From: Marsupella aquatica
Taxonomy: Eukaryota; Plantae; Marchantiophyta
Direction of reading: 5' to 3'
Assembly: GCA_973895155.1 (NCBI GenBank)
Contig: OZ316891.1
Coordinates: 2,927,801-2,991,800 of the forward strand
DNA: 64,000 bases
Shown here: positions 5,703-64,000 of the stretch, in pieces
Position numbering within the stretch: the first letter of the stretch is position 1
Layout: the number at the start of each line of letters is the position of its first letter
Translations under genes and position numbers: made by a program
Notes under the pieces: generated by a model
Database searches by the model: none
What the model saw: only the letters and a program-made list of their open reading frames with translations
What the model was told of the DNA's origin: nothing

Positions 5703-5848
5703 TCCTGCCTCCTAAGGGTCAGGTCGTTGTGCTCTTCCGGCTTCTAATAGGGCCTCAATTTGTTCTGCCCTTGTAATCGGCTTGTATGCCGATTCCATGG
5801 TATTTATTTTATTGCCGATGATAGACGGCGTTGTGGATCCTACCGGCT

Positions 5849-6814: not shown

Positions 6815-6823
6815 CGCTTTGGC

Positions 6824-8810
6824 TCATTTCACATCCTTAGCTATGGCTTCGGTATTCTCCAGGGTTTCCAATTCTCGCAGTTGTTCCTTAACACTAGCCA
6901 TAATAGAGGGGTAAAACAACTTAGGGTGATCTTGATTGAAGTCGTTGTCCTGTGAAGGATTGGGCTCACTGGTGGGCTCATGGCTTACCTGTGTTGTCGG
7001 CGCCCTTCCTTCTCCTTCTGTTGATGTTGATGAAGAGTCGATCTTTTCTTCTTTAACCTTCCCTTTATTTTTGGCCAGCCCATCCCACCTTTCCTTCCTT
7101 CTCGTGGATTGAGTAGAGACCCGATAGCAATCATGATCTAAATCCTCTTCTGAAAATGTTGATAGGGCCTTGACCTCATCATTAGATGGTCCAAACTCTG
7201 CCTTGGCATCCACTTGCCATCCAAGTTTGATGTGGTTGATTTGAACTCCTCCTGGGGTAGTACCCGAAGGCAAGACCTTGACCGGCAAGAGCTTATGATT
7301 TGCGGCAAGTCCTGCCAACCAAGTAGGACATTGTCCTGGCATGTGACCTTCCTGTCGGCATCCCATACATAGCTGAGCTGGTTGTCCATCACCTTGTTTG
7401 CGTGCAAAATGGCCAGGTTGACCACCATTCTCTAGCAAAATGGCCAGGTTGACCACAATTATAGCATGCCGCAAATCGTTGCACATTTGGCCTAGGAAGT
7501 ACTGACAGATTCTGAATAATCCAAGGATACATTTCTCCCGGATTGTTCCTTAATCCTGACTAGAGAGATGCAGGTTGGTTGGATAAGTCTCGTGCTCCAG
7601 TCTCACTGATGCCAAAAACACTATCAGCGGCATCCCCTAGAAAGTACTCTACTTCTCCCTGACATGGTCTGACCTCAGCCACATGCCGAACATGACTAGT
7701 ATTAAGTTTAGGACATGCGTCTTTATGATGTCCGGTTTTATAACATAAGGCACACCATACAGAGCTATCCTCGAGTACTACCTTATTCTTTGGTTTTACC
7801 TCTGCTATTATAGCTTTAAGCTGCTTGGTAAGAGCTATGATGTTATCTGGCATTTTAGCTTCTAACTTGACTTTCAACTTCCCCCTCCTTCTACCCTTCT
7901 TTTTCCGAGATTTTCCTTCTTCAGAACTAGAAGATGACTCACTCTTGCTACTTCCACTATTCGAGCTTGAGTTATCACTTCTTGACTTCTTAGAATGTTT
8001 CTTTTTCTTATCTTTTTTCTTATGGGGTGATCCTTCCTCCGATGAGGAACTCTCAGACTTGAGCTATTTTTTCCGGCTTGTGATGTCCGCATTAATGTAT
8101 AATTGAATATCTCTAATTGCCTTGGCTAAAGTCTCTGGGTTCTTTTTCCTAATTGCAAAACTCATCTTCTATGGCAAAGCATTCATCAACCATTGAAGTT
8201 GCATACCTTCAGATGCATTGGTCTTTGTACGTCTTACCAGCTTTTGGAAGCGTTGCAAGAACTTTCTGAAGGATTTGTTCTCCTTGAACCGGAGTCGTCC
8301 CAATTTCAGCACTACTAGCTGTGAGGTTCCAATGGGTTGAAACTCCTTTACAAATAGTGATTTGAAGGTATGCCAGATGGCTTGATCTTCCACATCCAAT
8401 GCTCTGTACTAAGGCCTAGCCTCACCCTTGAACAGGCCGAGAAGAATCTGCATCTTGATGGCCGATTCTCCATTTGCTACAGTGGTCCCTTCGAAGTCAT
8501 CCAACCATTCATCCGGATCATCATCTCCTCTTCCATGAAATGCCTTGTAATGAATGCGCGACTGTTGGCTCAGTCTGGTCCTAGGCCTCTCTTCTGGCCG
8601 TGCCTCTGGTTCCCCCATGTCGGTTGGGGACTCACTTCTCCCTACCGACTCCTCTTCTAGTATGTCTTCTTCGATGCCACTTTCAGTTACGGAATGACTA
8701 GCTCCTTTTGCCCCTCTCAGTCGCTGTGTATCATGCCACTTGGCGAGCTGCTGTAGACAAACTCTCTCCCGTTGAATCGCTCTTTCCTCCCTTGGCGTAG
8801 TTTCAGTCAT
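6824..8810 (-). pseudogene. Gypsy gag (fragmented) with several CCHC zinc knuckles
   Basis: FHGRGDDDPDEWL and WHTFKSLFVKEF retrotransposon-gag motifs. Knuckles CALCYKTGHHKDAC, CYNCGQPGHFARE(W) and CMGCRQEGHMPGQC. Confidence 0.85.
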
Positions 8811-8856
8811 TACCTACGTTTCCTCCCTGACTTCATATCTCACAGTTTAAGAAATG

Positions 8857-8875
8857 CCCCCTCCATCTAGCGCCA
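8857..8875 (-). promoter_or_regulatory. Primer-binding site (TGGCGCTAGATGGAGGGGG), not the tRNA-iMet type
   Basis: TGG-initial motif 4 nt (TTTT) after the CA end of the 5' LTR at 8880. Confidence 0.8.
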
Positions 8876-8879
8876 AAAA

Positions 8880-11800
8880 TGTGGTGCGTCCCATGGCTCC
8901 CTAAACCCAAGAAACCCCTCTGCTCAAGCCGATTCCCGCAAGTTTCGCTCTTGGCGAGGCTGATTTCGCGGCTTAGCGACATGGGACGCTGCTAACTTCC
9001 TTCTACTACTATTGCTATTAACATTTTACTCACATATACTGGAAAGATCCTTCATCAGGTCATGAGATATGTAGCTGGCCTATTCTTGGCCTTCCCTTGT
9101 CCTCCTCTCTCGGTTTTCCTTTAGGTATGTTTGGATTCCGCCACCGGAATGATCCCCAACTGGCTTGGGTAAGCCGCTAAGACCTTTCTCAGCTTGACAC
9201 ATCCAACTCTTACTACCTTGCTTACTCCCTTCTTGGTTGATGTGGGCAATCTTCAAACAAGTTAATGCGACACACAAATAGCAAAATGACTCCTTCTGAC
9301 TGAGTTATACCATGCACTTGCCATACAAACAGTACTCATATACAAGATCTGCGAACTAAGCCGTGAGGCTAACTCTATTCATTTCTTAGGTATGAGGAAA
9401 CATGAATATACACAAGGGTCACAGTATAACTAACCGAGAGCTTCTTTAACTACTTGATCCCAGTCCTGTTGGTGCACTAAAAACTTGCTAAGGAAGAAGG
9501 CCTTGAACTCCCCGCTGCCCAGGTACTTATCCTGGTAGTGGATCCGCCTAATTCCTTGCAGCGTAAGCCTAATCTACCTAACTGTAGTCTACCTATGTAC
9601 AGCAAGGCAGGAGCACAAGTGTTGCTCTTACCAGTGGATCCACAATCTCACTAAGCTAAGTGTTAGGGCCGCCCCTTGGTCCTGATCGTCCTTGGAGATT
9701 TGAGCCCGCCCTGCCCACTCACGCCTCCTCCCTCCACGTCTGCCCTCCTTAAAAGGAGCGACCCTCCTCCACCGTCATGGCAGCGGTGTCTGGTCCTCAA
9801 TGGACGCCCCCAACACTTCCTCCGCAGCCACTACTGTAGGTCCATCCTCTGACAGATTACCTGCTCCTGACCGAGTCAACTCTCCATCGGCCTGACTGGG
9901 TCCATCCTCGGCTTCGGCCACGGCCTCCTCGGCATGTTCTAGTGATGGATCCGGTACCCCGACTTCATCACCGAGTATCCTGGCCCCGACTTCATCATCC
10001 TTGCCTTCTAGGGCAGTGGGATCCTCTACCGTGACCCTGCCTGAGGTTGGTGTTGGGTTTACCTCCTTGGTCGCGATGACTTGAGGAGCCGTATTACTCC
10101 TTGACCCAAAAGGTTTCCGCTTCTTCTTCTTTGGTTTGGCAGCTGGCCCCTTCCCCTTGCCACTTACCTCCGGCACCGGTGCGAGTGTCTTGGCTTGTCC
10201 TTCGGCCAGTACTACACCAGGTAACTTGGTTGCCCCAATTGGAGTTGGTCCTGAGGAAGCCAAGCACTTAAATACTGCGGCCTGTTTCTTCAGCCGCTCC
10301 GTTTGGTTGTCGGCTTGCCGTTGTAAGTTTTCTATCTTCCGCGTGCTTTCCTCCAACTCCTCCTGCAATTCATCCAAGTCCTTGCGCGCCTCCTCCCGCT
10401 CCTTCTGGGCTTCCTCCAATTCCTTCTTTAAGGTCGCCCTCTCCTCCTGGGTTGCTCTCAGCTCCTTGTCGAGCTCCGTAACAACCCCAGACTCCATTTT
10501 ATTCATCTTGGCATAAGTCTGGTCGAGCTGGTTGTCTTTCTCACGGAGGTCGGCCTTGAAGCTGGCCGTCATGGATGTGAGCTCCTACCGCAGCACGATA
10601 ATCGCCTGATAGAATTTCCCTAACTCGGTCTCCTTCTGCTCAAGGGCTCCGCGAATATCCTTGAGTTCCCCCTTCGGCGCCCTTTCCCTTCTCTGAGTTT
10701 CTGCCATGGCCCGATTGTTGGCTGCTATGTGGGCCTCCTCTACGTCTCTCAGCTCTTGCTTCCACTTCTCCTTCTCCTTGATCAAATTGGCCAGATCACA
10801 TTGGGTCCGAGTCAGTTTATCCTTGATAATCTGATTATCAGACTGCGCGATATCCAATTGCCCCTGCATGATGTTGAGCTCATGTCGCTTAATCCGCATC
10901 TCATCTTGGGCTTTCTTGGACGCCTTCAGGTCTTCTACCTCGGCTTCTCTTGCCCTAAGCCAACGGATGACCTCGTCCTTCTTGCTTCTTTCCAAAGCCA
11001 CCGCTTCTTCTAATCGGTGCTTCTCCAATATTTTCCTCTGGAAAAAAGGTCCCTGCTCCAACTCCTCCCCAAGGATGTCGAGCGCAAGTTCCCCACACAT
11101 CTCCCCGTACTCCATGGCTCGTTCTTTAGCATAGGCGGAGTGAGCAGAAGTCATCGACATCATCCACAACGGCCTTTGTTCCCAGGCAGCCTTGCGAATT
11201 TCTTCTATCGTGGCTGGCGGGTTGCTTTGTTTTTCTGCAAGCCGCCGGATGTCCTCTGGCCATTCTCCTCCTGGTAAATCCTTCTCCCTTGCCAGGGCTC
11301 CCTCCTCTTCCTCCCTGCGTCGTTCCTGAAACTCCTATGCCGTCTGTTTTATGCCGTCAAAACTCGGGGGAGTGACATCTGGTGGGGGAGATTCGGGGTT
11401 GCTCTGCTGGGTCGGGTCCCCTCAAACTACTCTTGGAATAGTGGGGATGAACCTGCCACACGTCCTTATTCCTGGAACATGATGGTCCGACCCGTAGCCG
11501 GAGTCATCATTGTCGTAGCCTTCTACCGCCTCCTCCTCGGCTTGGACTACCGGCTCTCCCTGCTGCTGTCCTGGTCCTACCGTGAACGCAACCCCAGAAA
11601 TCATGGGTCTTGGTTCCTCTGGCTTCCAGGTTGATCTCATCTTCTCCCTGTCATGACCAGGGGCCTCAGGCTGCTTCTCCTCGGCTTCGGGACTTGAAGC
11701 TCCTACATACATTTGGACTCCCGGCTTGTGTTCCGGCCCCCTTCTCTCCTTGGCCCCGGTAAAGGGGTTTTCCCTGGTAAGTTGGCTAAGGCCGACTTTG

Positions 11801-13546
11801 GAAGCAGTATTCTGTACTAGCCCCGTTGCCGCTGCCGTTCTCCTTTCCTTCTCCAGCAATTTTAGCAGATTTTGCATGCCTGGTTGTTGCATCGGCAAGT
11901 CCTCCTTCCTCAACCTAAACACCTGCTCGATTGTAGGACTGTCGGGCTGGGTCGGTTTCTCTGTTGTCGGCCTCGGTTCCGGAACCTCCTCTGGTGCTCT
12001 TGCCTGCAGGGGCAGTACCGGGGCGAATATCTGGCTTCGGGCATATCGGCACAACAACGGCATGTGATAACCAAGCCGGGACACGCTTCCCATGCCGATC
12101 ACCAGCTGTTCCTCCTTCAAGATCTTCTTTAGTTGGGTTAGGAGGTACCCTTTGTAGTCTCGGCTTGGGTCTGGCCTCTCCGCCAGATAGACCTGTGCCT
12201 TGCCAATCTCTGCCCTCGGCAAGTTACAATGCATGGTCACCTGCAAGAAATTGATCATTTCTCCTATGTGCGGGTCGGTACAGGTGTTTCGGAAGAAGCC
12301 ATTCTTTGTTGATGGCCCTGGAAACGACCGGAACTCCTTGTCTGGCAAGGTCTTCCTGGTATCTACTTTGGTCTTATTGCCCATCGGCAAGCCAAACACT
12401 TTGGCAATCACCCGGGGAGTGAGATAGAAATCCTTCCCATACACCCTTGTGGAATTGGTCTCGGGCTCCCATGATCCCATGAATTCGAGTAAGTCTGAAT
12501 CCGGCACCTCCAACTTCAGCCATGGTAACTTTACGAATGCTTCCAAGCCGGATCCGGCCATGAAGCCCTGGTATTTCCGAGTCTGCATAGCCGTAAAGCA
12601 TGCATCCTCTTCCCGCGCTAAGTGTAATTTCACCTCCTCGGGGAGGGTCGCCGCCCAGCCTTTCCAGGTGTCATCTCTTGTTGGAACGACATTGATGGGG
12701 TCAACCTCCTCCTCTTTGGCTTCCGCCTGCCTCCTCCTTCCTTGCTCTGTTGGTTTCCTAGGTGCCACCGACCTCGTTCTTTTTGCAGGGGTGGCTTCTT
12801 CATTGTTGTTCCCTTTCCTCTTCATAGCGGCTGCCGTGGATGTTTCTCCTAGCACCCCTCGTCCACCCCTCCGTGCTACCCTTCAACTCCCACTGTATGT
12901 CGTTGCAGCGATTGATGGCCTCCCGGATGCCGACTATCCTGTTCTCACAAAACAGAAGATCATCGAGTTTGTCGGCAGTAGGCGTCCACAAGAATTCAGC
13001 CGTAATGAGTTTTCCTCCTAAGAAAGCAGACTTCTGCAGCTCCCACAGCCGAGCGAGCTCCTGCTGTTCTCAAGCCGCTCTCTCTGATTCTTCGTCCTAG
13101 TAGGTCCCAATGTACTCAGTTGCCCGTTCTAATAGGCATCCCCAAAAATGAGCAGCTTGCTTGACGTTGCTCATACCCCTCTTGAGTTGATCGTCGGTAT
13201 CTGCTTCCACCCCGAGTGCTTGCCTGAGCAGCGGGCAGCAGTTGGCCTCCCGTAGTCGTCTGCTTGGCTTGTGTTTGCAAATGAGCCGCCAGTCCTTGTG
13301 CTCGGTCCTTACCCCCCCCCCTCTTGGCTGGTCCTCCTTCCCGTTAGTAGCCGCCAGTACCTAGCGCACCTTAACCCTAATCGTGTTTCCCCCGACGTCC
13401 TTACTTTTGGCCCTTGGCTCGGGTTCCATAGTCACCCTTAATTGTTTATATTTCCCTATTTTTGTTACTATACTAAGGTGTTTCCTAAGGTACACTCCTG
13501 ATTTTACTAATTAAACTGGCCTAATGATTCCTGGCTAGGCATCACA
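8880..13546 (-). repeat. 5' LTR of the Gypsy element, 4667 bp
   Basis: TGTGATGCC...GCACCACA termini, followed by the PBS. Homologous end to end with the solo LTR at 54070..58705. Confidence 0.93.
9775..13429 (-). pseudogene. Disrupted full-length copy of the LTR-encoded protein (5' LTR copy)
   Basis: Fragments 12855..11422, 11169..10585 and 10572..9775 are colinear with the 1199-aa ORF. Nonsense changes at ~13098, 11422, ~11336 and 10585, and a frameshift near 12856. Confidence 0.92.
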
Positions 13547-18472: not shown

Positions 18473-20126
18473 TTACAACTGATTATAAGGTGCCCAGGAA
18501 CTAGAAGCCTGCTGCTGCTGATGCATTGAACTGAAAAATGGGAACTCCGAATTGTCCGGTTTCACTTGATTCGACAGTTGTGTTATTTGCCCTTGGCCAC
18601 CAACTCCGTAAGCAAATTGGCTTGTGTCTTCAATTTTGGTGGCGTAATTAGACCGCAGATCAAGATCATTGCTGTACACAGGTTGCAGCTCAGGCCTCCT
18701 CTGGTAGAAAGAAGAACTTGACGCTTCAAAATCAGATCCTGTCGATTCTCTACAACCACAAACACAACCATACCAAGCATTGTTAGGGCCCCGAACATAT
18801 GTAGCACGAAGAAATGAGGCAAGATCAGCTCAATACACAAATCGCTGCAAAGAACGAATCCCACGAGGTCTATCAAGAGCAAAGTACCTCAACTGAGAAC
18901 TGGACAGCATAGCTGCACCATTGTCGAGTTGCAGTCCTGCCCAAGAGCCATGCATCTGCACGCCTTGGCCAACATCCGAACTGCTAGCGACATTCGACCC
19001 ATCATTCAAGCTGGAGGGCCCTTCTCGCCCCGACATACCAAGCATTTCATAGGCCGAAGTCTGCTGCACTGCGCCCTACAACACCCAAAGTAAGCCAGGA
19101 AATCAGTAACGCCAATTGTAGCACACTTAACGCGTGGTTCAAAGAGCCCAAAGACCTCGACGAACGGAAGTGCAGCGGGACGTACCTGTCTATAAACATT
19201 CATATCATTCGCCCCCAGCTCGCCAATCCGCTTTGTGACCTTTCCCAGGGCTTGTGCCAACTCATCCCTTATCTTTACCAAGTGTTCGAGGGAGGAGTAA
19301 TTGTCAAGTAACTCGTCACCGGCGAATAACCTGCAACTAACCAGCGCCCAGACACTGGGATCAAACTCCATGTTCTTTACCAGAACCCATCTCCATAGAC
19401 TCAACAATTTAAGCGAGAACCTGTAAGTCATCCATTGGCGTCCACTTACCTCGCCTTTTGTTCGTAGAAATTTTTTTCTTGCATGACCTTGTGATAGCTG
19501 GCCTTCAATTCCAGATTCTGCAACAGCAAACCTGGTTCTTTAGTGGGTGAGGACAGCAGAAGGTCAGCCATGGGAAAATGGCACACGCTGTACAGTAGTC
19601 CTCAAGTGAGGAGAAGGTTCCGATCAGAGCAGAATGTGATCCATCAAACCAGCCCTAAAAACCCACACCCGCACAACTCTTACCTGCGACTGAAGGTCTC
19701 CATATCCGATCCTCGCAGGTTCTCCGCCTCGCTCATCGTTAAGCTTTTGCAACACCTTGTTGAGATACTCCACGTTCTCAAACTTCCGTTTGACCCTCTC
19801 ATGCTGTGGCGTCGTCGCGTACCGACCTATGACCTCCTCAATTCTGCGCGACGCATTCCAGATTGCGTGAGACCAAGACCTCGGACGAGAAACAGCCCAG
19901 AACAAGACGATCATCATCGACGGGGGGGACGAGAACCATACCTGTCGTCCTTGGAAAATGCTGTCAGCTTTCCAGACGGCGAGAACATAATCACGACAAT
20001 GTCAATATCGCACAGCACCGAGAGCTCATACGCCTTCTTCATCAACCCATTCCGCCTCTTCGAATAGGTCACCTGCCGGTTCGTGGGATTCTCGATCTTC
20101 TTAATCTCCAGCTTCACTCTTCCCAT
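18473..20126 (-). CDS. MIKC*-type MADS-box transcription factor, 340 aa; exons 20126-19942, 19843-19684, 19517-19450, 19330-19186, 19075-18888, 18749-18473
   Basis: [54 protein letters not shown] is an MIKC*-like MADS domain. The I region reads IEEVIGRY...ENVEYL. Five GT-AG introns give a phase-consistent 1023-nt CDS ending in TAA. Confidence 0.9.
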
Positions 20127-20218
20127 GATGACTGCCGCACGAACGAAACGAACGCTAGGCGCTTCGAAGACTGCGACGACTGTAGTCGAGAGAACGCCTT
20201 ACTCCGCCTTCCAAACTA

Positions 20219-34921: not shown

Positions 34922-35851
34922 ATCCATCGTTGTTCAACTAAAGGGCATATTCTAAGTTAAGGTTTCTTTTCAATATAAGTTGAGTTGTCTGAAACCCATT
35001 GGGATGTTTGAGAATATAATTGTAATTTAATGGTTTACTTTTATTAGCTTCATGTCTGAAGAAAGCTCCTTACCATAGTGCCATCTCTCCGTCATTGTTC
35101 AACTAAAGAGGACATTCTAAGTTGAGATTATGTTTTCAATATAGATTGACTTGTCTGAAAGCCAGTGGGATGCCAGTGAGAATATAGTTGTACTTCAATA
35201 GTTTGCTTTTATTGGCTTCATGTTTGAAAAAAGCTTCATGTCTGAAGAAGTTCCTTACCATAGTGCCATCCTTCCATTATTGTTGAGGTTTTCTTCAATA
35301 CAAATTGAGTTGTCCGAAACCCAGGGGGATGTTTGAGAATACAATTCATTTAATGGTTTGCTTTTATTAGCTTCATGTCTGAAGAAAGCCCCTTACCACA
35401 GTGCCATCCTTCCATCATTGTTGAGGTTTTTCTTCAATACAAATTGAGTTGTCTGGAACCCAGTGGGATGTTTGAGAATACAATTCATTTAATAGTTTGC
35501 TTTTATTAGCTTCATTTCTGAAGAAAGCTCCTTACCATAGTGCCATCCTTCCATCATTGTTGAGGTTTTTCTTCAATATAAGTTGAATTGTCTGAAATTC
35601 AGTGGGATGTTTGAGAATACAATTCATTTAATGGTTTGCTTTTATTGGCTTCATGTCTGAAGAAAGCTCCTTACAATAGTGCCATCTTTCCGTCATTGTT
35701 CAACTAAGGAGCACATTCTATGCTGAGGTTGTTTTTCAATATACTTTGAGTTGTCTGAAAACCCAGTGGGATCTTGAGAATATAGTTGTAATTTAATGTT
35801 GTGCTTTTATTGGCTTCATGTTTGAGAAATCTCCTTACCATAGGGCCATCC
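34922..35851. repeat. Tandem array of ~138-165 bp units (~6 copies)
   Basis: CCTTACCATAGTGCCATC-like motif recurs at ~35068, 35253, 35390, 35529, 35668 and 35833. Confidence 0.9.
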
Positions 35852-39864: not shown

Positions 39865-40984
39865 ATGCTTGGGAGGTGACGTGTGTTCGTGACGGGATTT
39901 CATGACGGTTTTCCCAGCGTTGAGTGTTGGTGGATTTTCCAGAGTTCCATCGCATGGAACTTGGAGTTTATGGGCTCAACGGATAGATCAGGGCAAGAGC
40001 TTTCTAACGGTGTGAAGAAATCGTTGAACGGAGCTCGTGGTGCAGAGAGATCTAAGTTTTCGTCGTTCTGGATTTTGTGAAGAAAGTTGGCAATCGACTC
40101 AGAGGGAGAAGCGTCAAGTGTTTTGACTCAACGGAGAGATTGAGGCAAGACGATTGTTTTTGAGTCCGGGATTGGCTCTTTGATGCAAAGAGGAAGGCTA
40201 AGCAAAATCAATTACCTTGTTGGACTTGGTGACGGCACCAAGTGCAATTGATCAACATTCATTGTTGACAAGGTACCATTTTTTTCTCTTTGAAAAACTG
40301 ATTCGAAATTGGCTATGGCAATTGAGAGAAATCTGTCATCTTTACCAATTTTTTTCTCCCTCGTTCTTTCCTCGTTTTGGGTGCTTCTTATATCGATCTT
40401 CATCACCTCGGAGTCTAGTTTCCAAATCTGAAATCGGATCTTGATTTAGTCAAAACCCGAGTGAGATATCTTGCGTTTGGTGTCGAGGGGTATATTCTGC
40501 CGTGTGTATTTTCTGCGCGCGCGACCAGATTTCGACGACGAAGGGTGGTAGGGGGTTTTGGGGGTTCGAGGACACATGTCAGCCCCTCGATTGTTCTTCC
40601 AAAATTCCCACAGGGCCTGTACAAGGGTCATAGAATATTCCAAAAAACCAGAGAGCTATTTTTTGACCGTCCGACGGTAACTTTTTTGGTTATTTTTCGG
40701 CGAGGTCGTAGCCATTGAAGTTGGCAATGCAGCGCACCAATCACATCGCAATTCCGACAACGGGTTGTACTTGGTATTTCGGTTATTCCCTGAGGTGGTC
40801 AAAACGGGGGAGTTTCCCAAGGTTTTACCCACCTCGACCGAAATTTGAATAACTTTTCTGTCAAATTTCGATTTTGATTTTGGTTTTCAGTATTGGACTC
40901 CTAGCTTTGTGGGCTACGTGGCGGTGTTGAGTTTCAAGTTTTTTGAGAAGTTGTGAAAAACAACATTTTTTGTGACTTTCTCAT

Positions 40985-43900
40985 ATGAGTGATTCGGAGG
41001 AGTTTTTCGAAGATGTGGAACTTGAAGCACGAGGGTCACCGCAGAGGTTTCAGGGGCAGAGAGAGGAGCAGGAGGAAGAGCACGTGACACCGATACCATC
41101 ACCGGTGCGGCGTGTGGTGGAGGAAGCAGTACTACTACCGGAGCTCACGGTAAAGAAGAAGATGGGGACTTTCAAGCTTGGGGGACCCAAGTATGAAGTG
41201 ACAAAGTATGATGGGCGCTCTGACTACTTGCTATGGGAGAAGCAGGTGAAGGGAGTGCTTTATGCGTCAGGGATGGGCCAACTGCTGAGCCCTCGTGAAG
41301 ACAATGTTGATGAGAAACAATGGGACCGCATGCAGGAGCAGGGAGTGTGGTGTGTTACACTCTATCTCATGCCTCCCATCATCAAGCAGTTGGGTGCACA
41401 TAAGGATTGCATGTCCTTATTTGCGGAATTGCAGAGCAAGTATCACCGCAAGGAGTTGTCGAACCGGCTCTACACTTCCTACAAACTGATGAGTTTCAGG
41501 ATGAAGGAATCTGGTACGAAATTGCAAGACCATGTGGATGCTTTCAACGACATGGTCGTTGACTTGGAAAACCTTGGGGAGACTTTGAATGATGAGACGA
41601 AGGCTCTGCAGCTTCTTAGTTCATTGCCTCCATCTTACCAGTCCCTATCACGAGTGTTGTTGCATCGTGATAGGGATACCATTTCATACAATGACGTGGT
41701 AAGTTCTCTGCTTAGTGATGATCTTCAGCAGAAGATGCACATCACATCACAGCCTTCATCATCTGGTGCTGCCCTCAATGTTAACCGTGGGAGGAGTATG
41801 CAGCGACCAACTGGGGACCGTAGAACCCAGTTTAGATCTAAATCCAGATCTAAGTCCAAGGGTAAATCCCCTCAGAGGAGGCAGGTGACATGTTGGAAGT
41901 GCAACCAAGTTGGACACTTCAAGCGAGACTGTAAGGGAAAGGCAGCGGAAACTTCATCGGCAAATGTGGCTAGGGCTGATGGAGAAGCTGATTTACTCAA
42001 TGATGAGTATGTTTTATGAAGCCGGGGGTATGCCCTGTGCACGTCATCTAGGAGAGCAGATGATGTGTGGATTCTTGATTGTGCTTGCTCTTTTCATATT
42101 TGTTACATTCGTGAGTTTTTCAGTTCTTACTCTATTTCAAACGGTTCAGTTCTGATGGGAAATGATCACTCCTGTCAAATTGAGGGAATTGGGTCTGTGA
42201 AGATTCAAATGTTTGATGGCGCTGTGCGCACAGTGTCCGGAGTCAGGTTTGTACCTGGCATGCGTAAGAATCTGATTTCACTCGGTGTGTTGGATTCAAA
42301 TGGTCATCAATGGAGCGTTATTGATGGTGAACTTCAAGTCAGGTCGGGAGAGACAGTGATTTTGAAGGGGAGTAGACAAAAGAATTTGTATGTGTTACAG
42401 GGCAATACTGTATGTGGAGAGGCCAATGTAACCAAGTCTCACGAGGAGATGACTCAACTGTGGCATTCACGGCTAGGCCACATGAGTGAGAAGGGTTTGG
42501 CTATCTTACGGAAGAATGGACTCATTTCTGATTTGCAATCTTGTAAATTAGAGTTTTGTGAGCATTGCATTCTTGGAAAGCAGCATTGTCGTGCTTTTGG
42601 TGTTGGAACTCATCGTTCCAAAGCGGTTCTTGAGTACATACATAGTGACGTGTGGGGTCCATCCCCGACTCCCTCACACTCTGGAAAGTTGTACTATGTA
42701 TCATTTATTGATGATTACTCAAGATTTGTGTGGATTTATTTCATGACGCATAAGTCTGATGTCTTGTCCATTTTTAAGAAGTGGAAGGCCCAGGTGGAGA
42801 ATCAGACTGGAAACATGATCAAGTGTTTGGATACAAGGGTGAAGAGTCTGAGGTCAGACAATGGCGGGGAGTACACTTCAATGGAATTTGAAGAGTACTG
42901 TTCAGAACAGGGGATAACTCGCCATCTCACCACAGTTTATACTCCGCAGTAGAATGGTGTCGCTGAGAGGCTCAATCGGACACTGTTGGAGTGGTCACGG
43001 AGTATGTTGAGCCAATCAGGTTTACCACAAGAATTTTGGGCAAAAGCTGTCAATACCGCAGCTTATTTGGTAAATCTTTCTCCTTCTAGTGCTATCAATT
43101 TCAAAACGCCGTTTGAGATGCGCTATAAGCGGCAAGCAGACTATCATGGCTTGGTAATTTTTGGAAGTGATGCATATGCTCTCACACCAAAGCAGAATAG
43201 GACCAAGTTGGATCCTACCTCCAGGAAATGTGTTTTTCTTGGGTACCAGAGTGGTGTGAAAGCCTATAGGCTATGGGATCCTATTGCCTGTAAGCTCGTT
43301 GTCAGTAGGGATGTTTCCTTCAATGAATCCAGATTATTGAAGGAGGGGGAGAATACTCAGGTCTCCCGTACTGACAAAGGAAAATCTCCTATCCCGGATC
43401 TCGTTGAGGGGGAGATTGGTTATGAGGTGCATGACCGGAGAGAAGGAGTTGCTCCAATTATGGAGCTGGTTCCTGTGCCAGAGGAACCAGAGGAGTTTGT
43501 TGATGCTGGTGAGCAGCAAGTGGATGCTGTTGAGCTTCAAATTGTACCAGCACACGCAGATCAACCGGAGTCATCGGCTAGAAGAACATCTGGTCGCACT
43601 GTACGCGCTCCATCAAGGTATGGACAGTGGGTTGATTCATCTCAACTGCAAGAGGATGATTTTACAGCTGATGATGAGGGTGATGCGTTAATTTTGGAAG
43701 AAGGAGAACCTTCTTCATTTCATGAGGCAAGTGCTTCAAAGGAGAAGCAGAAGTGGACTGCAGCAATGCAAACGGAGATGCAGTCACTAAAGGACAACAA
43801 AACTTGGGAGCTTGTTAAGCTGCCTAAGGGTCAGCAAGTGGTGGACAGCAAGTGGATTTACAAGCTGAAGGATAATTCCATAGGAGGTGGATCGAAGGTC

Positions 43901-45292
43901 TACAAGGCTAGATTGGTAGCAAAGGGATTCACACAAGAGAAAGGTGTGGATTACAATGAGGTCTTCTCACCAGTTGCTAAGTACTCTACAATACGACTAT
44001 TGTGTGTACTTGTTGTAATGTTTGGTCTGCTCCTAGATCAGATGGATGTTGTCACAGCTTTCCTCTATGGCACATTGGAAGAGGTGATCTTCATGAGACA
44101 ACCGCTAGGTTTTGTGAAGAGAGGACAGGAGGAATTGGTTTGCAGATTGCTGAAATCCTTGTATGGGTTGAAGCAGTCACCAAGACAGTGGAACAAGCGG
44201 TTTGACGATTGGATTCGGTCACAAGGTTTTCACATAAGTGTATTTGACCCTTGTGTGTATTTGAAACCGGTGAAGAATGTTGTCTTTGGGTTCATTGTTT
44301 TAGTACTTTATGTGGATGACATGCTAATTGCAGCCAATGATAGGTCTGAGATTGTTAAGCTCAAGGCACTGCTTAGGGCAGAGTTTAAGATGAAGGACTT
44401 AGGGCCAGCTAAGAGGATTTTGGGTATGGAGATCACTAGGGACTTGGAGGCTGGCAAGCTATGGTTGACGCAGAGCAGTTATGCGAGGAAGGTAATTGCA
44501 AGGTTCAACATGGAGAATAGCAAGCCAGTAAGTACCCCGTTGGCTCCACACTTCAAGTTATCATCAGCGTTCTGTCCTACGGATGACACAGAGAAGGGGT
44601 TGATGTCAAAGGTTCCATATGACAAGGCAGTGGGGAGTCTCATGTATTTGATGACTTGCACTAGACCTGATCTTGCCATGGCTATGGGCAAGGTGAGCAG
44701 GTACATGTCGAATCCAGGGAAGGTACACTGGGAAGCAGTGAAGTGGATTATCAGGTACTTGAAGGGTACCGTGGATCATGGTCTTTTATTTGATGCGAAT
44801 GCAAAGAATGCTAGATCATTGATTGGCTATGTAGATTCTGACTATGGACAAGATTTGGACCGAAGGAGATCAACAACAGGATACGTGTTCACACTTGGCG
44901 GTGGATGCATAAGTTGGAGGTCTACTTTGCAGAAGTGTATTGCTCAGTCTACTACAGAAGCGGAGTATGTTGCAGCTGCGGAAGCAGCAAAGGAAGCGAT
45001 TTGGTTGGATAGACTTATCACTGAAATGGGATTGCCACAGGGGAATGTGAAGCTCCATTGTGATAGTCAAAGTGTGCTCCACCTTGCTGTGAACCAGGTG
45101 ATGGACAGCAGAGTGAAGCACATTGACGTCAGGTACCATTTTATCAGGCAGGCTGTGTCTGATAATTTGTTTGAGCTAGTCAAGATTGATGGTAAACTCA
45201 ACCCGGCTGACGCATTTACCAAAGTGATTCCTTTGGAGAGTTTCTCTAGACACCGTGACGTATTGCAGGTTTTGCAATTGCATCACAAGTAG
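40985..45292 (+). pseudogene. Copia gag-pol in a single reading frame with two in-frame stops (42017-42019 TGA, 42950-42952 TAG)
   Basis: CWKCNQVGHFKRDC, WILDCACSFH, WHSRLGH, HSDVWGP, LRSDNGGEY, YKARLVAKGF, LYVDDML and KHIDVRYHF. ORFs starting at 40985, 42065 and 42986 share one frame. Confidence 0.95.
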
Positions 45293-54069: not shown

Positions 54070-57000
54070 TGTGATGCCTAGACAGGAATCACTCGGCCGG
54101 TTAAGTGGGTAAAGCAGGAAGGCACCCTAGGAACACCTTAGTATAGGGACAAAACAAGGAAAATATAAACAATTAGGGGCAACCATGGAACCCGGGCAGA
54201 GGCCGGAGGTAAGGCTGAGGGTGAAAACCCGATTAGGGTTAGGGCGCGTTAAGCGTCGGCGGCTAGGAAGGATCAACGGGAAGAAGGACCGGCAGAGGAG
54301 AGGGGTAAGGAGCGCTTGCAGGAGATGGTGGCTCATTTGCGAGCACGAACTAGGCAGACGACTACGGGAGGCCAACTACTGTCAGCTGCTTAGGCAAGCA
54401 CTCGGGGAGAGAGTAGATACCGACGATCGACCTAAGGAGGGTATGAGCAACGTCAATCAAGCGGCACATTTCTGGGGATGCCTGTTCGAACGGGCAACTG
54501 AGTACATCAAGACTTACGAGGACGAGGAGTCAGAAAGGGCAGCTCGAGAACGGCAGGAGCTCGCTCGATTGTGGGAGCTGCAGAAGACGGCTTTCTTAGG
54601 AGGCGAACTCATCAAGGACGAGTTCCTGTGGACGCCTACTTCCAATCAACTCGACGATCTTCTGTTTTGCAAAGACAGTGTCGTCGGCATCCGAGAGGCC
54701 ATCAAGAACTGCAACGACATACACTGGGAATTAAAGGGTAGCACGAAAAGGTGGACCCAGGCAACGGTGCTAGGAGAAACCTCCACGGCAACAGAGATGA
54801 AGAGGAAGGGGGCCGTCAACGATGAAGCCACCCCGGCAAAAAGAACGAGGTCGGCGGCACCAAAGAGGCCAGCCGAGCAGCAGAGCAGGAGGCAGGGAGA
54901 AGCCGAAGAGGAGGAGGTCGATCCCATCAAGGCCATTCCAACCAGGGATGACACCTGGAAGGGCTGGGCGGCAACCCTACCGGTGGAGGTGCAACTACAT
55001 TTTGCACGGGAGGAGGATGCATGCTTTACGGCCATGCAGACCAAGAAGTACCAAGGCTTCATGGCCGGATCCGGCTTGGAGGCCTTTGTAAGATTACCAT
55101 GGCTGAAGCCGGAGGTACCGGAGTCAGACCTATTAGAATTCGTGGGGTCATGGGAACCCGAGACCAATTGCACGAGGATATATGGGAAGGATTTCTATCT
55201 TACTCCCAAGGTAATTGCCGAAGTGTTTGGCTTGCCGATAGGCAATAAGACCAAAGTTGATACCAGGAAGACCCTACCTGACAAGGAGTTCCGGTCGTTC
55301 CCCGGGCCATCAACGAAGAATGGCTTCTTCCGGAACACCTGCACCAACCCGCACATAGGAGAGATGATCGACTTCTTGCGGGTGACCATGCATTGTAACT
55401 TGCCGAGGGCAGAGATCGGCAAGGCACAGGTCTATCTGGCAGAAAGGCCAGACCCAAGCCGGGACTACAACGGGTACCTCCTCAACCAATTGAAGAAGAT
55501 CTTAAAGGAGGAGCAGCAGGTAATCGGCATGGGGAGCGTGTCGCGGCTTGGCTATCACATGCCGCTGTTGTGCCGGTATGCCAGAGGTCAGACTTTTGCC
55601 CCGGTACTTCCCCTGCAGGTAAGGGCACCCGAGGAAGCTCCAACGCCGAGGCCGTTGGCTGAGAAGCCTCAACCACCTGTTAGTCCTACGATCGAGCAGG
55701 TGTTTAGGCCCAGGAAGGAAGACTTGCCGATGCAGCAACCAGGCATGCAGAGTCTGCTGAAACTACTGGAGAAAGAAAAGAAATCGGCATCGGCAACAAC
55801 AACGGCAACGGCAACAATGCAGGACACTACTACAGAGGTAGGCCTACACCGGCTCACAAGAGAAAACCCCTTTGCTGGAGACAAGGAGAGAATCAGGCCG
55901 GAATCCAAGCCAGGTGTTCGAATGTACGTGGGAACCTCAAGCTCCGAATCTGAGGCAGAATTGCCTGAAGCTCCTACCGACGAAGAGGAGAGGGAGAAGC
56001 CGGACGTCCAAGAGGTAGAGGAGGCAGTGGAGGACTGCAGCCATGATAATTCCGGCTATGGGTCGGACCATCACGTTCCAGGAGTAAGGACCTGTGGCCG
56101 GTTTGTCCCCACACTTCCAAGGGTAGTGCGAGGGGACCCCAACCAGCAGAGTAGCCCTGAGTCTCCCCCACCAGATGTTGCTCCCCTGAGCTTCGACGGC
56201 ATAAAACAGATGGTGCAGGAATTTCAGGAGCGAATCAAGCAGGAGGAAGAGGCCGCCCTGGCTAAGGAAAAGGATTTACCAGGAGGAGATTGGCCGGAGG
56301 ACATCAGGCGGCTAGCCGAAAAAGGAAGCAAACCTCTAGCCACGATTGAAGAGATCCGCAGGACGGCTTGGGAGCAGAGGCCACGATGGGCGATGCCGAT
56401 CACTTCTACTTACTCCACCTACGCTAAGAATAGAGCCATGGAGTATGGTGAGATGTGTGGGGAACTTGCGCTCGGCATATTTGGAGAGGAGTTGGAGGTA
56501 GGACCCTTTTTCCATAGGGAGCAGTTGGAGAAGCACCAATTAGAAGAAGCGGTGGCTTTAGAGAGAAGCAAGAAGGACGAGGTCATTCGGCGGCTTAGGA
56601 GGATGGAAGCCGAGATTGAAGATCTAAGGGCGGCCAAGAAAGCCCAAGATGAACTGCGGATTAAACGACATGAGCTGAACATCATGCAGGGGCAGTTGGA
56701 CACCGCGCAGGCTGATAATCAGAATATCAAGGATAAACTAACTCAGACGCAGGGAGAGTTGGCCGACACGATCAAAGAGAGGGAGAAGTGGAAGCAAGAG
56801 CTGAAGAATACAGAGGAGGCCCACATAACAGCCAACAGCCGGGCCATGGCGGAGACCCAAAGAAAGGAATGGGCGTTGAAAGGGGAGCTCAAGAAAATCC
56901 GCGGAGCCCTTGAGCAGAAGGAGGTCGAGTTAGGGAAATCCTATCAAGGGATTATGGCGCTGCAGCAGGAGCTTGCGTCCCTGACGGCCAGCTTCAAGGC

Positions 57001-58705
57001 CGACCTAAGGGAGAAGGACGAGATGCTCGAACAGACTTACGCCAAGATGAACCAGATGGAGTCTGTCATCATTGCAGAGCTCGACAAGGAGCTAAGAGCA
57101 ACCCAGGAGGAGAGGGCTACCTTGAAGAAGGAATTGGAGGAAGCCCACAGGGAGCAGGAGGAGGCCAAAAACGAGCTGGAGGGGGCACGTAAGGACCTGG
57201 ATGAAACCCAAGAGGAGTTGGAGGAAATCACGAGGAAGATGGAGAACCTACAGCGGCGGGCCGACAACCAAACAGAGCGGCTGAAGAAACAAGCCGCAGT
57301 ATTTAAATGCTTAGCTGCAGCAGGTCCATCTCCCGTTGGGACAAACCAGTTACCAGGGGTGGTAATTGCCGAAGGACAAGCCGCGCCAACTGCACCAGTG
57401 CCGGAAGTAAGTGGGAAGGGGAAGGGACCAGCTGCCGAGCCACCAACGAAGAAGAAGCGGAAACCTTCAGGGTCAAGGAGTAATACGACTTCACAGGCCG
57501 TGGTGATCAAGGAGGTAGACCCAGCACCGACCCCAGACAGGGTCACGGCTAAGGATCCAACTACCCTAGGGGAAGGGGAGGCCGAAGCCGTGGGAGTGGC
57601 TGAGGCCGAAGCCGTGGGTATTGCCGAGGCCGGTGTCGAGGCTGAAGCCGAAGGTGGACCCAGTCAGGCCGATGGAGAGTTGACTCAATCAAGGGCAGGT
57701 AATCTGTCAGAGAATGAACCTACGGCAGTGGCTGAGGAGGAAGCGTTGGGGGCGTCCATTAAGGATCCACCACCGGTGTCGTGACGGTGCAAGGGCGCCG
57801 TTCCTTTTAGGGAGGGCGGACGTGGAGGGAGGAGGCGTGAGTGGGCAGGGCGGGCGCGGATCTCCACGTTTAGGATTAGGATCAGAACCAGGAGCGGCCC
57901 TGACACTTAGCTTAGTGGGATTGCGGTCCCACTGGTAGGAGCAACACTTGTGCTCCTGCCTTGCTGTACATAGGTAGATTCGGGCAAGTAGATTACTGTT
58001 AAGTAGATTAGGCTTACGATGCAAAGAATGGCGGATCCACTACCAGGATAAGTACCTGGGCAGCGGGGAGCTCAGGGCCTCTTCTTTAGCAAGTTTTTAG
58101 TTTGCACCAGCCGGGCTGGGATCAAGTAGTACGAGAAGCTCTCGGTTAGTCATACAGTGACCCTTGTGTATATTCATGTTTCCTCATGCCTAAGAGCTGA
58201 ATAGAGTTGGCCTCACGGCTTAGTTCGCAGAACTTGTGTATGAGATGTACTGTTTGTATGGCAAGTGCATGGTATGACTCAGTCAGAATGAGTCATTTTG
58301 CTATTTGTGTGTCGCATTAACTTGTGTGAAGAGTGCCCACATCAACAGAAGGAAGGAAAGTAAGCAGGGGAGTGAGAGTTGGATGTGTCGAGCTGAGAGA
58401 GGTCTTAGCGGCTTAACCAAGCCTATTGGGGATCATTCCGGCGGCGGAATCCAAACATACCTAACAAGACAGAGGGGAAGACAGGGGAAGACAGGGGAAG
58501 GCCTATATTAGGCCGGCTACGTATCTCATGACCCGATGAAGGATCTGTCCAGTATATGTGTGTAAAATGTTAATAGTAGTAGTAGAAGGTTAGCAGCGTC
58601 CCATGCCGCTAAGCCGCAGAAACGGCCTCGCCAAGCACGAAACCTGCGGGAATCGGCTTGAGCTGGGGGGTTTCTTGGGTTTAGGGAGCCATGGGACGCA
58701 CCACA
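54070..58705 (+). mobile_element. Solo LTR (4636 bp) of the giant-LTR Gypsy family
   Basis: TGTGATGCC...GCACCACA termini identical to those of 13546..8880. Perfect 5-bp TSD TTGTG at 54065-54069 and 58706-58710. No PBS or PPT adjacent. Confidence 0.95.
54185..57784 (+). CDS. LTR-encoded 1199-aa protein: Arg-rich N-terminus, NLS-like motifs, plant-transposon/PMD-like core, long coiled coil, acidic tail
   Basis: Uninterrupted 3.6-kb ORF with a good start context (AACCATGG). Amino-acid sequence is conserved against two diverged copies in the window. Confidence 0.85.
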   Translation: MEPGQRPEVRLRVKTRLGLGRVKRRRLGRINGKKDRQRRGVRSACRRWWLICEHELGRRLREANYCQLLRQALGERVDTDDRPKEGMSNVNQAAHFWGCLFERATEYIKTYEDEESERAARERQELARLWELQKTAFLGGELIKDEFLWTPTSNQLDDLLFCKDSVVGIREAIKNCNDIHWELKGSTKRWTQATVLGETSTATEMKRKGAVNDEATPAKRTRSAAPKRPAEQQSRRQGEAEEEEVDPIKAIPTRDDTWKGWAATLPVEVQLHFAREEDACFTAMQTKKYQGFMAGSGLEAFVRLPWLKPEVPESDLLEFVGSWEPETNCTRIYGKDFYLTPKVIAEVFGLPIGNKTKVDTRKTLPDKEFRSFPGPSTKNGFFRNTCTNPHIGEMIDFLRVTMHCNLPRAEIGKAQVYLAERPDPSRDYNGYLLNQLKKILKEEQQVIGMGSVSRLGYHMPLLCRYARGQTFAPVLPLQVRAPEEAPTPRPLAEKPQPPVSPTIEQVFRPRKEDLPMQQPGMQSLLKLLEKEKKSASATTTATATMQDTTTEVGLHRLTRENPFAGDKERIRPESKPGVRMYVGTSSSESEAELPEAPTDEEEREKPDVQEVEEAVEDCSHDNSGYGSDHHVPGVRTCGRFVPTLPRVVRGDPNQQSSPESPPPDVAPLSFDGIKQMVQEFQERIKQEEEAALAKEKDLPGGDWPEDIRRLAEKGSKPLATIEEIRRTAWEQRPRWAMPITSTYSTYAKNRAMEYGEMCGELALGIFGEELEVGPFFHREQLEKHQLEEAVALERSKKDEVIRRLRRMEAEIEDLRAAKKAQDELRIKRHELNIMQGQLDTAQADNQNIKDKLTQTQGELADTIKEREKWKQELKNTEEAHITANSRAMAETQRKEWALKGELKKIRGALEQKEVELGKSYQGIMALQQELASLTASFKADLREKDEMLEQTYAKMNQMESVIIAELDKELRATQEERATLKKELEEAHREQEEAKNELEGARKDLDETQEELEEITRKMENLQRRADNQTERLKKQAAVFKCLAAAGPSPVGTNQLPGVVIAEGQAAPTAPVPEVSGKGKGPAAEPPTKKKRKPSGSRSNTTSQAVVIKEVDPAPTPDRVTAKDPTTLGEGEAEAVGVAEAEAVGIAEAGVEAEAEGGPSQADGELTQSRAGNLSENEPTAVAEEEALGASIKDPPPVS

Positions 58706-62394: not shown

Positions 62395-63993
62395 TCAAAT
62401 CTGTGTCCTAGATAAAACACCTTGAATAATCACATCCGGATAAGAAGGAATAATAGGTAGGAACGCTAAACACCTAAGCGACTTGAACCCTTGGGAAGCC
62501 GGTAGCATACATTGTTTTGTAATCAACTGCTCCCTTAGCTTAACAAGCTTCTTCTCATATTTAATTGGAATAGCAAACCCACCAGGACAAACCCAAACAT
62601 AGTATGGATAGGGCCATGGAATTTCCGGCACAAGGGGCGGAAATGGAGCTTGAGCTCGTCGAAGCATATACACCCAACACCAAATTTCGAACTCCGAAAA
62701 CTTATGTCGTCTGTCCTTATCAATGGGAGGAACCGCCTTCCCAGGTTCATATGTGCAAATCAAACTACGAATCCTCGGATGGGATGTCATTGGCAAAATC
62801 TGCTGCTGCTGCAAAATGCTCTCCATCTCCAGATGTCGAAAAGCTACTCGAAAATGTTTCTTCTCCCACCTGTGAATTGAAGCCAAATTAGGGATAGGAT
62901 TTCGGGGTGGCAAATCCACTGTATGCCGAAGTCGAGGAGGTACTCTGATAATGCGAGGGTCTTCGTCTTCTTCTCCATCACTTGGTGCTCCTATCCAACG
63001 GAAAATTACATCTGGCATAGCGGAAGGAATCACTGACTCCTTAACTGGTCGAATTGGCAATGTAACAGGAGACGAAGGAGCAGAAGGTTCGGGCTCCAGT
63101 GGTTCAAATTCTTCTCTTGCAACAGTAGCTGGTTGATCTGCAGTGGGATGCATTGGTACTAAAACAGGAAGTTCTTCTTTAAAATTATCGCTAGGTAAAG
63201 AGACTTCCTGGTTAGTTCGATCTGCCAAAAGTACAGGAAGGGGTAGCTCGTCTGTTCCGATAGGTGCTTCTCCCTGTTCAAAATCCTGGGAAGATGCTTC
63301 AGGAAAGATCTGTCGACTGATAGCATGGCGCAACCGTTTCCAAGATTTTCGAGTATACGTCACTGAAAACTCCTCCCGAATGTTTTTATCCTCGTTTGTA
63401 GCCAATGAAACTGGTGCTGAGCTGGTTGTCGAAGCGGGTGTCTCGGGTACCAATATGGGTACAGATATACCCATATTACCAGATACCTGATTGCGACTCG
63501 GAAAACCAGCAGAGCCTCCTTCAATCAACTCATCTTCAGGAGAAACCCATTTTACAGGCGGAAATGAAGGAGCTCCTATCGCGGCTATTGCCTCATCTAA
63601 TTCCTTAGTTATATCCAAAGGAATCGATATGAGTGAACCAGGTGTAGACCAGGCAGGGTATCTTGCGACAGATTGGGGAGAAGTCACTGGTTCACCTACT
63701 TCGTCTATATCCACAATTGCATCCTCCGAATCAACTTTAACCAGCTTCACAATTTCTGAGCTTAATATTTCTGACTCCTGGACCAGAGGGATTTCACCTA
63801 TATTTGGGCTAGAACTAAGAGAGTCGGACGAATCATACTCCTGTAAAGCCTGCAAAGCATCACTATTTGCCTCTATGGGAACCAAAACAGGGGTAGAAGT
63901 AAATCCATCATACTCGTCCTCAGCAGTAGAATGTTGAAGAGGTTCCCCTGAAAAACCTTCTTCATCCACCCTCACCTCATCTTCAACATTCAT
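62395..63993 (-). CDS. Retroelement-associated ORF of unknown function (at least 532 aa; acidic/Pro-rich N-part, Trp/Cys/basic C-part; may extend beyond the window)
   Basis: Long uninterrupted ORF directly upstream of the protease-like ORF. No recognisable gag or pol motif. Confidence 0.55.
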   Translation of the reverse strand: MNVEDEVRVDEEGFSGEPLQHSTAEDEYDGFTSTPVLVPIEANSDALQALQEYDSSDSLSSSPNIGEIPLVQESEILSSEIVKLVKVDSEDAIVDIDEVGEPVTSPQSVARYPAWSTPGSLISIPLDITKELDEAIAAIGAPSFPPVKWVSPEDELIEGGSAGFPSRNQVSGNMGISVPILVPETPASTTSSAPVSLATNEDKNIREEFSVTYTRKSWKRLRHAISRQIFPEASSQDFEQGEAPIGTDELPLPVLLADRTNQEVSLPSDNFKEELPVLVPMHPTADQPATVAREEFEPLEPEPSAPSSPVTLPIRPVKESVIPSAMPDVIFRWIGAPSDGEEDEDPRIIRVPPRLRHTVDLPPRNPIPNLASIHRWEKKHFRVAFRHLEMESILQQQQILPMTSHPRIRSLICTYEPGKAVPPIDKDRRHKFSEFEIWCWVYMLRRAQAPFPPLVPEIPWPYPYYVWVCPGGFAIPIKYEKKLVKLREQLITKQCMLPASQGFKSLRCLAFLPIIPSYPDVIIQGVLSRTQI

Positions 63994-64000
63994 CCGAGAA

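Follow-up and report, generated by a model that had tools for sequence, protein, structure and literature searches.

LTRs are annotated as non-coding as a rule, and the formation of a solo LTR normally strips an element of its coding capacity. The sag gene of MMTV lies mostly in the LTR, is preserved in solo LTRs, has a dN/dS of 0.289 among endogenous copies and is provided with an internal U3 promoter, as described in PMC4667437. In plants, the additional ORFs of LTR elements are described as internal, lying 5' of gag or between pol and the 3' LTR (PMC7264820; PMC6317226, PMC11963269, PMC11728184). PMD-C is reported to resemble the DNA-binding anti-silencing protein VANC (10.1101/2024.09.27.615353; PMC13547354), and coiled coils are predicted to mediate the oligomerisation of VANC and Athila domains (PMC13547354). 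No plant retrotransposon gene inside an LTR was found in the literature searched, which comprised main texts only and few subscription papers; the eORF tables of PMC6317226 may be relevant to novelty. PMC6673714 and PMC1560396 were considered as precedents and set aside, as the phrase in the passages concerned meant the whole element.

The window analysed here is a stretch of 64,000 nucleotides from the liverwort Marsupella aquatica (contig OZ316891.1). It contains a damaged full element (13546 to 825, minus strand) and a solo LTR, whose parts are as follows.

54070 to 58705, plus strand: solo LTR of 4,636 bp, TG...CA, with the 5-bp target duplication TTGTG on both sides
8880 to 13546, minus strand: 5' LTR of the full element, with a primer-binding-site-like sequence after it
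2640 to 8879, minus strand: degenerate gag-pol in the order RT-RNaseH-integrase
825 to 2639, minus strand: 3' LTR of the full element, its end cut off by another element

As with sag, a coding frame is found inside the repeated terminal unit, is kept in solo LTRs and has been selected. Sag is an animal retrovirus superantigen, whereas the gene in the window belongs to a plant retrotransposon and encodes a 1,113-residue soluble coiled-coil protein wholly in the LTR; no sequence relation is suggested, and the likeness is one of layout. Athila ORF1 (PF03078), Transposase_32 (PF20167), Ogre PMD (PF10536) and Retand Transposase_28 (PF04195) are likewise non-chromovirus accessory genes, and these plant additional ORFs share with the window gene a globular domain, a coiled coil and NLS-like motifs, and include its nearest language-model neighbours. 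They are internal, whereas the window gene lies inside the LTR and its core is reached by no Pfam model. What appears to be new here is a putative accessory gene of a plant element in an MMTV-sag-like position.

The family belongs to Ty3/gypsy but not to the chromoviruses, and liverworts are the source of its nearest named relatives. Pfam RVT_1, RT_RNaseH and rve were found in Ty3/gypsy order on the minus strand of the full element, together with TG...CA LTRs, a primer site, a purine tract and a target duplication, the last seen at the solo LTR only, the 3' end of the full element being missing. The integrase frame crosses the purine tract and ends 12 nt into the 3' LTR, and thus leaves no internal room for an extra gene. 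In an RNase H tree of 45 selected rows, with lineage labels inferred by ourselves, the window element joins liverwort and environmental rows (support 100/96) and does not group with Athila-type elements, and the angiosperm rows, two of which bear PF20167, form a separate clade. The additional archaeal-type RNase H that is a Tat trait was not found in the five internal frames scanned of this degenerate element; Tat Z clades without aRH are reported to occur in liverworts (PMC10508981). RNase H scans of viral contigs and genome contigs gave no matches. The 5' and 3' LTRs differ by a K2P distance of 0.051. The LTR family is high-copy: sequence pieces from other runs match the solo LTR at 0-7 differences per 250-610 nt, and in runs X1 and X2 the LTR is covered hundreds of times more deeply than the flanks. 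For both reasons the solo copy is probably just young.

The selected frame occupies 72% of the LTR. The ATG at 54443, the first at the border of the selection signal, was taken as its start; a start at the upstream ATG at 54185 was rejected, as the frame behind it shows no selection and is interrupted in the other two copies. The features of the solo copy, all on the plus strand, are as follows.

54164 to 54169, plus strand: TATA[AT]A, candidate promoter of the gene, the sole match on this strand in the LTR and present in all three copies
54188 to 54442, plus strand: leader, likely the 5' UTR, open in the solo copy, with dN/dS 1.2-1.6 and frame-breaking indels
54443 to 57784, plus strand: selected reading frame of 1,113 codons, intact in the solo copy
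54926 to 55600, plus strand: conserved globular core, codons 266-490, dN/dS 0.11-0.15
55601 to 56530, plus strand: low-complexity linker with in-frame indels of 12 and 81 nt, dN/dS 0.19-0.29
56531 to 57400, plus strand: long coiled-coil region, dN/dS 0.23-0.37
57163 to 57183, plus strand: heptad segment of 21 nt, in the solo copy and missing from the 5' LTR, exact placement ambiguous
57401 to 57784, plus strand: acidic low-complexity tail with a KKKRK basic cluster, dN/dS 0.70-0.92, no detectable selection
57785 to 58705, plus strand: non-coding LTR tail, the site of 10 of the 11 indels that were listed for other copies

The 5' LTR copy of the frame carries four stops and one 5-nt frameshift, and the 3' LTR copy retains the first ~480 codons with three stops and frameshifts. 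The protein has three NLS-like clusters and no hydrophobic segment (maximum 19-residue hydropathy 0.98), and its coiled-coil region gave generic coiled-coil Pfam matches, all below cut-off. Rfam gave no match, and the LTR tail shows no conspicuous motif array specific to the family.

Purifying selection acted on the protein encoded by the frame during diversification of the family, as the original prediction had proposed. The three copies were codon-aligned and dN/dS was estimated per domain, pairwise and not per branch. Between the solo LTR and the 5' LTR, the value for the core was 0.11 (95% CI 0.06-0.17, kappa 1) to 0.15 (0.09-0.23, kappa 4) and that for the coiled coil was also low, whereas values of about 1 were obtained for the leader, over the final 127 codons and in the non-coding tail (0.87-1.22 over three frames). 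Four of the five alternative frames of the core and coiled coil gave 1.1-3.5, and the fifth, a minus-strand frame with third positions in common, mirrors the signal. When each observed change was reassigned at random to a site with matching trinucleotide context, synonymous changes were in excess in both the core (56 observed vs 34.4+-4.0, p=0.0003) and the coiled coil (68 vs 46.8+-4.9, p=0.0003). In the codon numbering that gives the core as 266-490 (54926-55600), the signal begins upstream of the interval first considered, at codons 105-265 (p=0.006), and is absent at codons 20-104 (p=0.82) and 1091-1217 (p=0.15). Indels in the frame kept register in seven of eight cases, against 5 of 15 in the non-coding LTR parts (Fisher p=0.027); the eighth is the 5-nt frameshift, which only the 5' LTR carries. 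Base composition is excluded as the source of the signal by the frame controls, together with the non-coding control and the permutation within trinucleotide context, and the claim that the frame encoded a functional protein and was no by-product of composition was borne out. Since insertion, decay of the core in the two sister LTRs has been neutral, with 12 of 27 differences synonymous (11.9 expected) besides the four and three stops, which places the selection on the replicating element.

The individual signs first read from the sequence held up for the most part. The synonymous codons for EAFV (GAG GCC TTT GTA vs GAA GCA TTC GTA) are present at 55079-55090, and 56 of the 85 core differences between the solo and 5' LTR copies fall at third positions; the core is conserved, but 'almost invariant' was slightly too strong a wording for 89% protein identity to the 5' LTR copy. 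Both linker indels are indeed in frame, and the coiled-coil difference is exactly one heptad, 21 nt at about 57163-57183. This indel is real but gives no independent proof of selection on the coiled coil. The DNA around it is a degenerate 21-nt repeat belonging to repeat family D1 (lag-21 identity 0.52 vs 0.29-0.38 at non-multiple lags), and it is weak evidence because it is a single event and slippage in such a repeat would give 21 nt without selection.

The core is ancient and conserved, as is seen on comparison with one homolog, P0231, which is 44% identical over 199 residues with the same core boundaries (phmmer E 5.8e-50 against 150 hits). Pfam contained no family matching the core at E up to 10 or P0231 at E up to 1, and no match to the Transposase_32, ATHILA ORF1 or PMD families at the curated cut-offs. 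Word-indexed protein searches with the core gave no matches, the metagenome and viral contigs scanned held no loci of the core and the genome contigs scanned none of P0231, and PDB sequence searches returned chance-level rows only. The Atlas language-model neighbours of the core were Transposase_32 (0.89) and ATHILA (0.88), below the bar of 0.9, and 9 of its 10 best family matches belong to one family or clan; these Transposase_32/ATHILA-ORF1/PMD-type neighbours may serve as a lead only. That the core has a fold of this type is nevertheless somewhat favoured. AlphaFold2 models of the core were of low confidence, pLDDT being 32 for the one built on the sequence alone and 41 for the one built on a 29-row alignment assuming homology to the L003 family, and fold searches with them found no match (Foldseek best E 6.1; best Z 3.1) and are uninformative on fold.

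A comparison gene of a more distant element family, sense-oriented and downstream of pol, was found at L001, L003 and L004, and is complete at the latter two (~980 codons; core, linker and coiled coil). These three and P0140 belong to an unnamed family of ~980-1,070 residues that accounts for 149 of the 150 matches listed. Its core is also selected (dN 0.117, dS saturated), and the L003 protein has no transmembrane-like segment (maximum hydropathy 1.11). It resembles the window gene in orientation, place after pol, length and core-linker-coiled-coil-acidic-tail build, but the L003 gene stops upstream of an LTR of ~450 bp, whereas the window gene lies inside its LTR. The top three Atlas clusters of the L003 gene equal those of the window core in length and size, and its Atlas model compares with the clusters at TM 0.70 (PMD), 0.55 (Transposase_32) and 0.53 (ATHILA). 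Sequence homology between the L003-family gene and the window core is suggestive only: hhalign placed 100 columns collinear at P=0.017 with a probability of only 2.7%, an L003-family profile built without window sequences scored the window core at 1.3 bits, under the best shuffles, the reverse search did no better than shuffled targets, and pairwise shuffle tests gave p 0.11-0.78. The L-family core had no loci in the viral contigs scanned, and the L003 family is not the sister group of the window element in the RNase H tree.

On balance we consider it an even call that this gene inside the LTR, selected while the family replicated, encodes a putative nuclear accessory protein that would oligomerise through its coiled coil, bind DNA or chromatin and raise expression of its own family, most likely against silencing. 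In the proposed model it would be like VANC of VANDAL transposons, with the host PMD proteins MAIN/MAIL1, in being an oligomeric DNA-binding protein encoded by a transposon and protecting its own family; the VANDALs are eudicot DNA transposons, and no sequence or structure match to VANC (DUF1985) was found, the low-confidence model of the core giving no PDB match. Action on transcription or silencing, and not on particles, is taken by itself a little short of even. CpG observed/expected is 0.63-0.81 in the LTR, only modestly above the 0.52 of gag-pol, which counts against an anti-silencing role, and transitions between the LTRs are more frequent at CG (0.19) and CHG (0.11) than at CHH (0.04); for these two reasons the LTR copies were probably methylated. 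The alternative that the putative protein serves the RNA or particle of the element, by exporting genomic RNA from the nucleus, assembling particles or tethering the integration complex to chromatin, is rather unlikely, although it fits the selection data equally and a long coiled coil with basic clusters would suit a scaffold. For the additional ORFs of plants, nuclear-import and Rev-like roles have been put forward (PMC7264820), and such an export protein is described in a nematode LTR element (PMC10309623), but the nearest domain leads are PMD/Transposase_32/ATHILA-type, and PMD/VANC-type proteins are tied to DNA and chromatin in the literature consulted.

An env-like protein for cell-to-cell spread, for which a sense gene downstream of pol in the genomic RNA would be in the expected position (PMC7264820), is highly improbable given the NLS-like clusters and the lack of a transmembrane-like segment here and in the L003 protein. 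Domestication of the solo LTR as a host gene would explain why its 1,113 codons are open and the other two copies broken, but it is very unlikely in view of the high depth and the near-identical pieces in other runs; of the differences close to fixation in other copies, 4 are synonymous and 6 non-synonymous (10 of 29 listed rows in frame), too few to show selection. The region is A/G-skewed, its last 127 codons look neutral and its 21-nt repeat can explain the heptad indel, all of which would suit an artefact, whether from purine-rich composition, from transition bias or from constraint on RNA or another frame; the controls, the in-frame indels, the distant homolog P0231 and the lack of an Rfam match have already largely refuted this, and it is exceedingly improbable.

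For the preferred chromatin-directed accessory protein, we judge it a toss-up whether transcription runs from the TATA near the LTR 5' end to the LTR tail, which would make each LTR a self-contained unit. The chances seem equally balanced that the gene entered the LTR when the plus-strand priming site shifted upstream of a gene lying between pol and the 3' LTR. It is a doubtful further proposition that a bryophyte retrotransposon lineage took a VANC/PMD-like anti-silencing gene into its LTR together with the promoter and terminator of that gene, so that solo LTRs would be free-standing trans helper genes. If this were true, each insertion would bring two gene copies, solo LTRs would seed the genome with many family-helping genes, and giant LTRs would be selected for. 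With a selected gene of 3.3 kb in the LTR, solo LTRs retain a full coding unit; long LTRs can owe their length to protein coding, and LTR-borne genes would escape annotation. The natural intact copy provides test material for the role of accessory proteins in plant non-chromovirus elements.

Self-comparison revealed three related long repeats within the window, which are a solo LTR and the two LTRs of one damaged full element.

54070-58705, plus strand: solo LTR of 4,636 bp, TG start, CA end, TTGTG on each flank
13546-8880, minus strand: 5' LTR of the full element, followed by primer-site-like sequence and degenerate gag-pol
2639-825, minus strand: 3' LTR of the full element, cut off by a different element

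The TG...CA ends and flanking TTGTG identify 54070-58705 as a true solo LTR. The degenerate gag-pol has the domain order RT, RNase H, integrase, and its integrase frame crosses the purine tract and ends 12 nt into the 3' LTR, so that two independent junctions set the LTR's 5' edge and place the extra frame within the LTR. The LTR leader (54365-54387) and tail (58195-58217) share an inverted repeat of 23 nt (78 %), which may be due to chance. The element truncating the 3' LTR (1-824, minus strand) has a repeat-like unit of ~510 bp bounded by TGTGAC...GTCACA and followed by an open frame; neither an obvious tRNA primer site nor a visible target duplication was found there, and it is possibly a self-priming element.

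The stop-to-stop frame of the solo LTR is 1,217 codons long. Counted from the ATG at 54443, where the selection signal starts, it encodes 1,113 residues and occupies 72 % of the LTR. The three copies were aligned and pairwise Nei-Gojobori dN/dS was calculated per region at kappa 1 and 4.

Pairwise dN/dS, solo LTR versus 5' LTR
Codons 20-104: 1.20-1.62
Codons 105-265: 0.20-0.30
Core, codons 266-490: 0.11-0.15
Linker, codons 491-800: 0.19-0.29
Coiled coil, codons 801-1090: 0.23-0.37
Protein tail, codons 1091-1217: 0.70-0.92
Non-coding LTR tail: 0.87-1.22

In four other frames of core and coiled coil, dN/dS was 1.1-3.5, and the minus frame with shared third positions mirrored the signal, as expected. 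A permutation preserving every change and its trinucleotide context gave p=0.0003 for core, linker and coiled coil each and p=0.006 for codons 105-265, with no signal in codons 20-104 or the tail codons 1091-1217. The selection signal is real, and the purifying selection on the protein put forward in the original prediction is borne out, both by this permutation and by the per-domain dN/dS, run pairwise.

Indel lengths also agree with the claim of in-frame indels, since 7 of 8 within the frame are divisible by three versus 5 of 15 in non-coding stretches of the LTR (Fisher p=0.027), with the limit that three of those seven cluster within a repeat and could count as fewer events. In other copies from four runs, 10 of the 11 indels listed fall in the 0.9-kb non-coding tail and one in the frame. 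Among the best 40 of 385 variant rows, 29 lie inside the frame; those nearly fixed in other copies comprise 4 synonymous and 6 non-synonymous changes, and the remainder 11 and 8. The predicted one-heptad indel measures exactly 21 nt and leaves a clear heptad run in register, with 3.5-residue periodicity peaking in the two windows covering it. The surrounding DNA is, however, a degenerate 21-nt repeat, for which slippage predicts the same length, so the indel is consistent with selection on the coiled coil but is no evidence for it. The LTR encodes a selected, soluble, coiled-coil protein, in which no membrane segment was found and which carries three NLS-like clusters.

The 5' and 3' LTRs diverge by K2P 0.051 (77 transitions and 11 transversions over 1,803 sites). 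In the core this divergence is neutral, with 12 synonymous changes among 27 against 11.9 expected; codons 105-587 show a borderline synonymous excess (32 of 70 versus 25.2 expected, p=0.05), and the frame holds four stops in the 5' LTR and three in the 3' LTR. A gene that the element needs while it replicates, and that may decay freely once inserted, leaves this pattern; most simply, the solo copy is young.

A MADS-box first exon (19914-20131, minus strand; SRF-TF E 1.9e-27), perhaps MIKC*-like, marks the host as a land plant; it lies in a CpG-undepleted region ~6.4 kb from the 5' LTR. The element's RNase H region is 67-69 % identical to Calypogeia (liverwort) proteins, 72 % to an environmental protein and ~48 % to angiosperm elements, and clusters with liverwort and environmental rows (support 100/96) in a tree of 45 selected rows. 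In two public runs, the contig depths summed over the LTR exceed those of the flanks by a factor in the hundreds; this ratio does not give a copy number, but it indicates a large family. The window also holds a nearly intact Ty1/copia gag-pol interrupted by two stops (40976-45292, plus strand), a tandem array of ~165-bp period (34923-35851) and an open frame of at least 534 codons (62395-64000, minus strand), acidic and proline-rich with a tryptophan/cysteine-rich end. The latter matched no Pfam family, is followed by a protease-like remnant judged by eye, and is probably another transposon protein.

Pfam and PDB sequence searches named no family for the core. An exhaustive HMMER search, seeded with five aligned rows of this core and the cores of a more distant element family, returned 168 proteins; among the 150 listed, P0231 is a clear core homolog (44 % identity across 199 residues, identical boundaries). 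The nearest ESM Atlas clusters were an unnamed one (0.91), Transposase_32 (0.89) and ATHILA (0.88), an affinity that is a lead only, and structure models made here were of low confidence. Loci of the distant family, found via RNase H (50 % identity), carry a sense gene after pol, built as in the LTR gene. At one of them, L003, the gene stops ahead of an LTR of ~450 bp, whose limits are given by a copy of 79 % identity with unrelated flanking sequence; no clear purine tract was found in front of this LTR. The L003 gene's top three Atlas clusters match those of the core in lengths and sizes, and its Atlas model reaches TM 0.53-0.70 against PMD, Transposase_32 and ATHILA clusters, all under the Atlas naming bar. 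Profile-profile alignment of the two cores gave P=0.017 (probability 2.7 %), or P=0.21 with thinner alignments, and three other tests detected no homology, which leaves their relationship suggestive. L003 (484-10073), L004, L001 and the protein P0140 represent an unnamed gene family with products of ~1,000 residues, located between pol and a short LTR; its core has 149 relatives among the matches listed, its Atlas model is PMD-like, no Pfam match was present in members scanned, and the family deserves its own description.

A single TATA[AT]A match at 54164 is present in all three copies. Behind it come a leader not under selection, the frame and a non-coding tail, an arrangement resembling a transcription unit complete in itself. 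PMD and VANC proteins (10.1101/2024.09.27.615353; PMC13547354) suggest by analogy that the core would attach to DNA or chromatin, with the coiled coil serving to oligomerise the protein. Such a bound oligomer would favour expression of its own family, but transitions in the LTR copies are biased to CG and CHG, as expected if the DNA was methylated, and no array of target motifs was seen in the LTR tail; the main rival is that the protein acts in RNA export, particles or integration. The gene likely originated when the plus-strand priming site shifted upstream and drew a pol-to-LTR gene into the LTR, although the RNase H tree does not establish the direction of movement.

In passages of PMC7264820, PMC6317226, PMC11963269 and PMC11728184, the additional ORFs described for plant elements lie either 5' of gag or between pol and the 3' LTR. 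The passages on non-chromovirus LTRs of up to ~5 kb (PMC6317226) mention no LTR coding. A literature search for a gene inside a plant retrotransposon LTR listed no plant case. The layout matches that of MMTV sag, a gene located largely in U3 that persists in solo LTRs and has dN/dS 0.289 (PMC4667437). The LTR-encoded gene belongs to a broad class of accessory genes that is already known; what is unusual is where it lies and how large it is.
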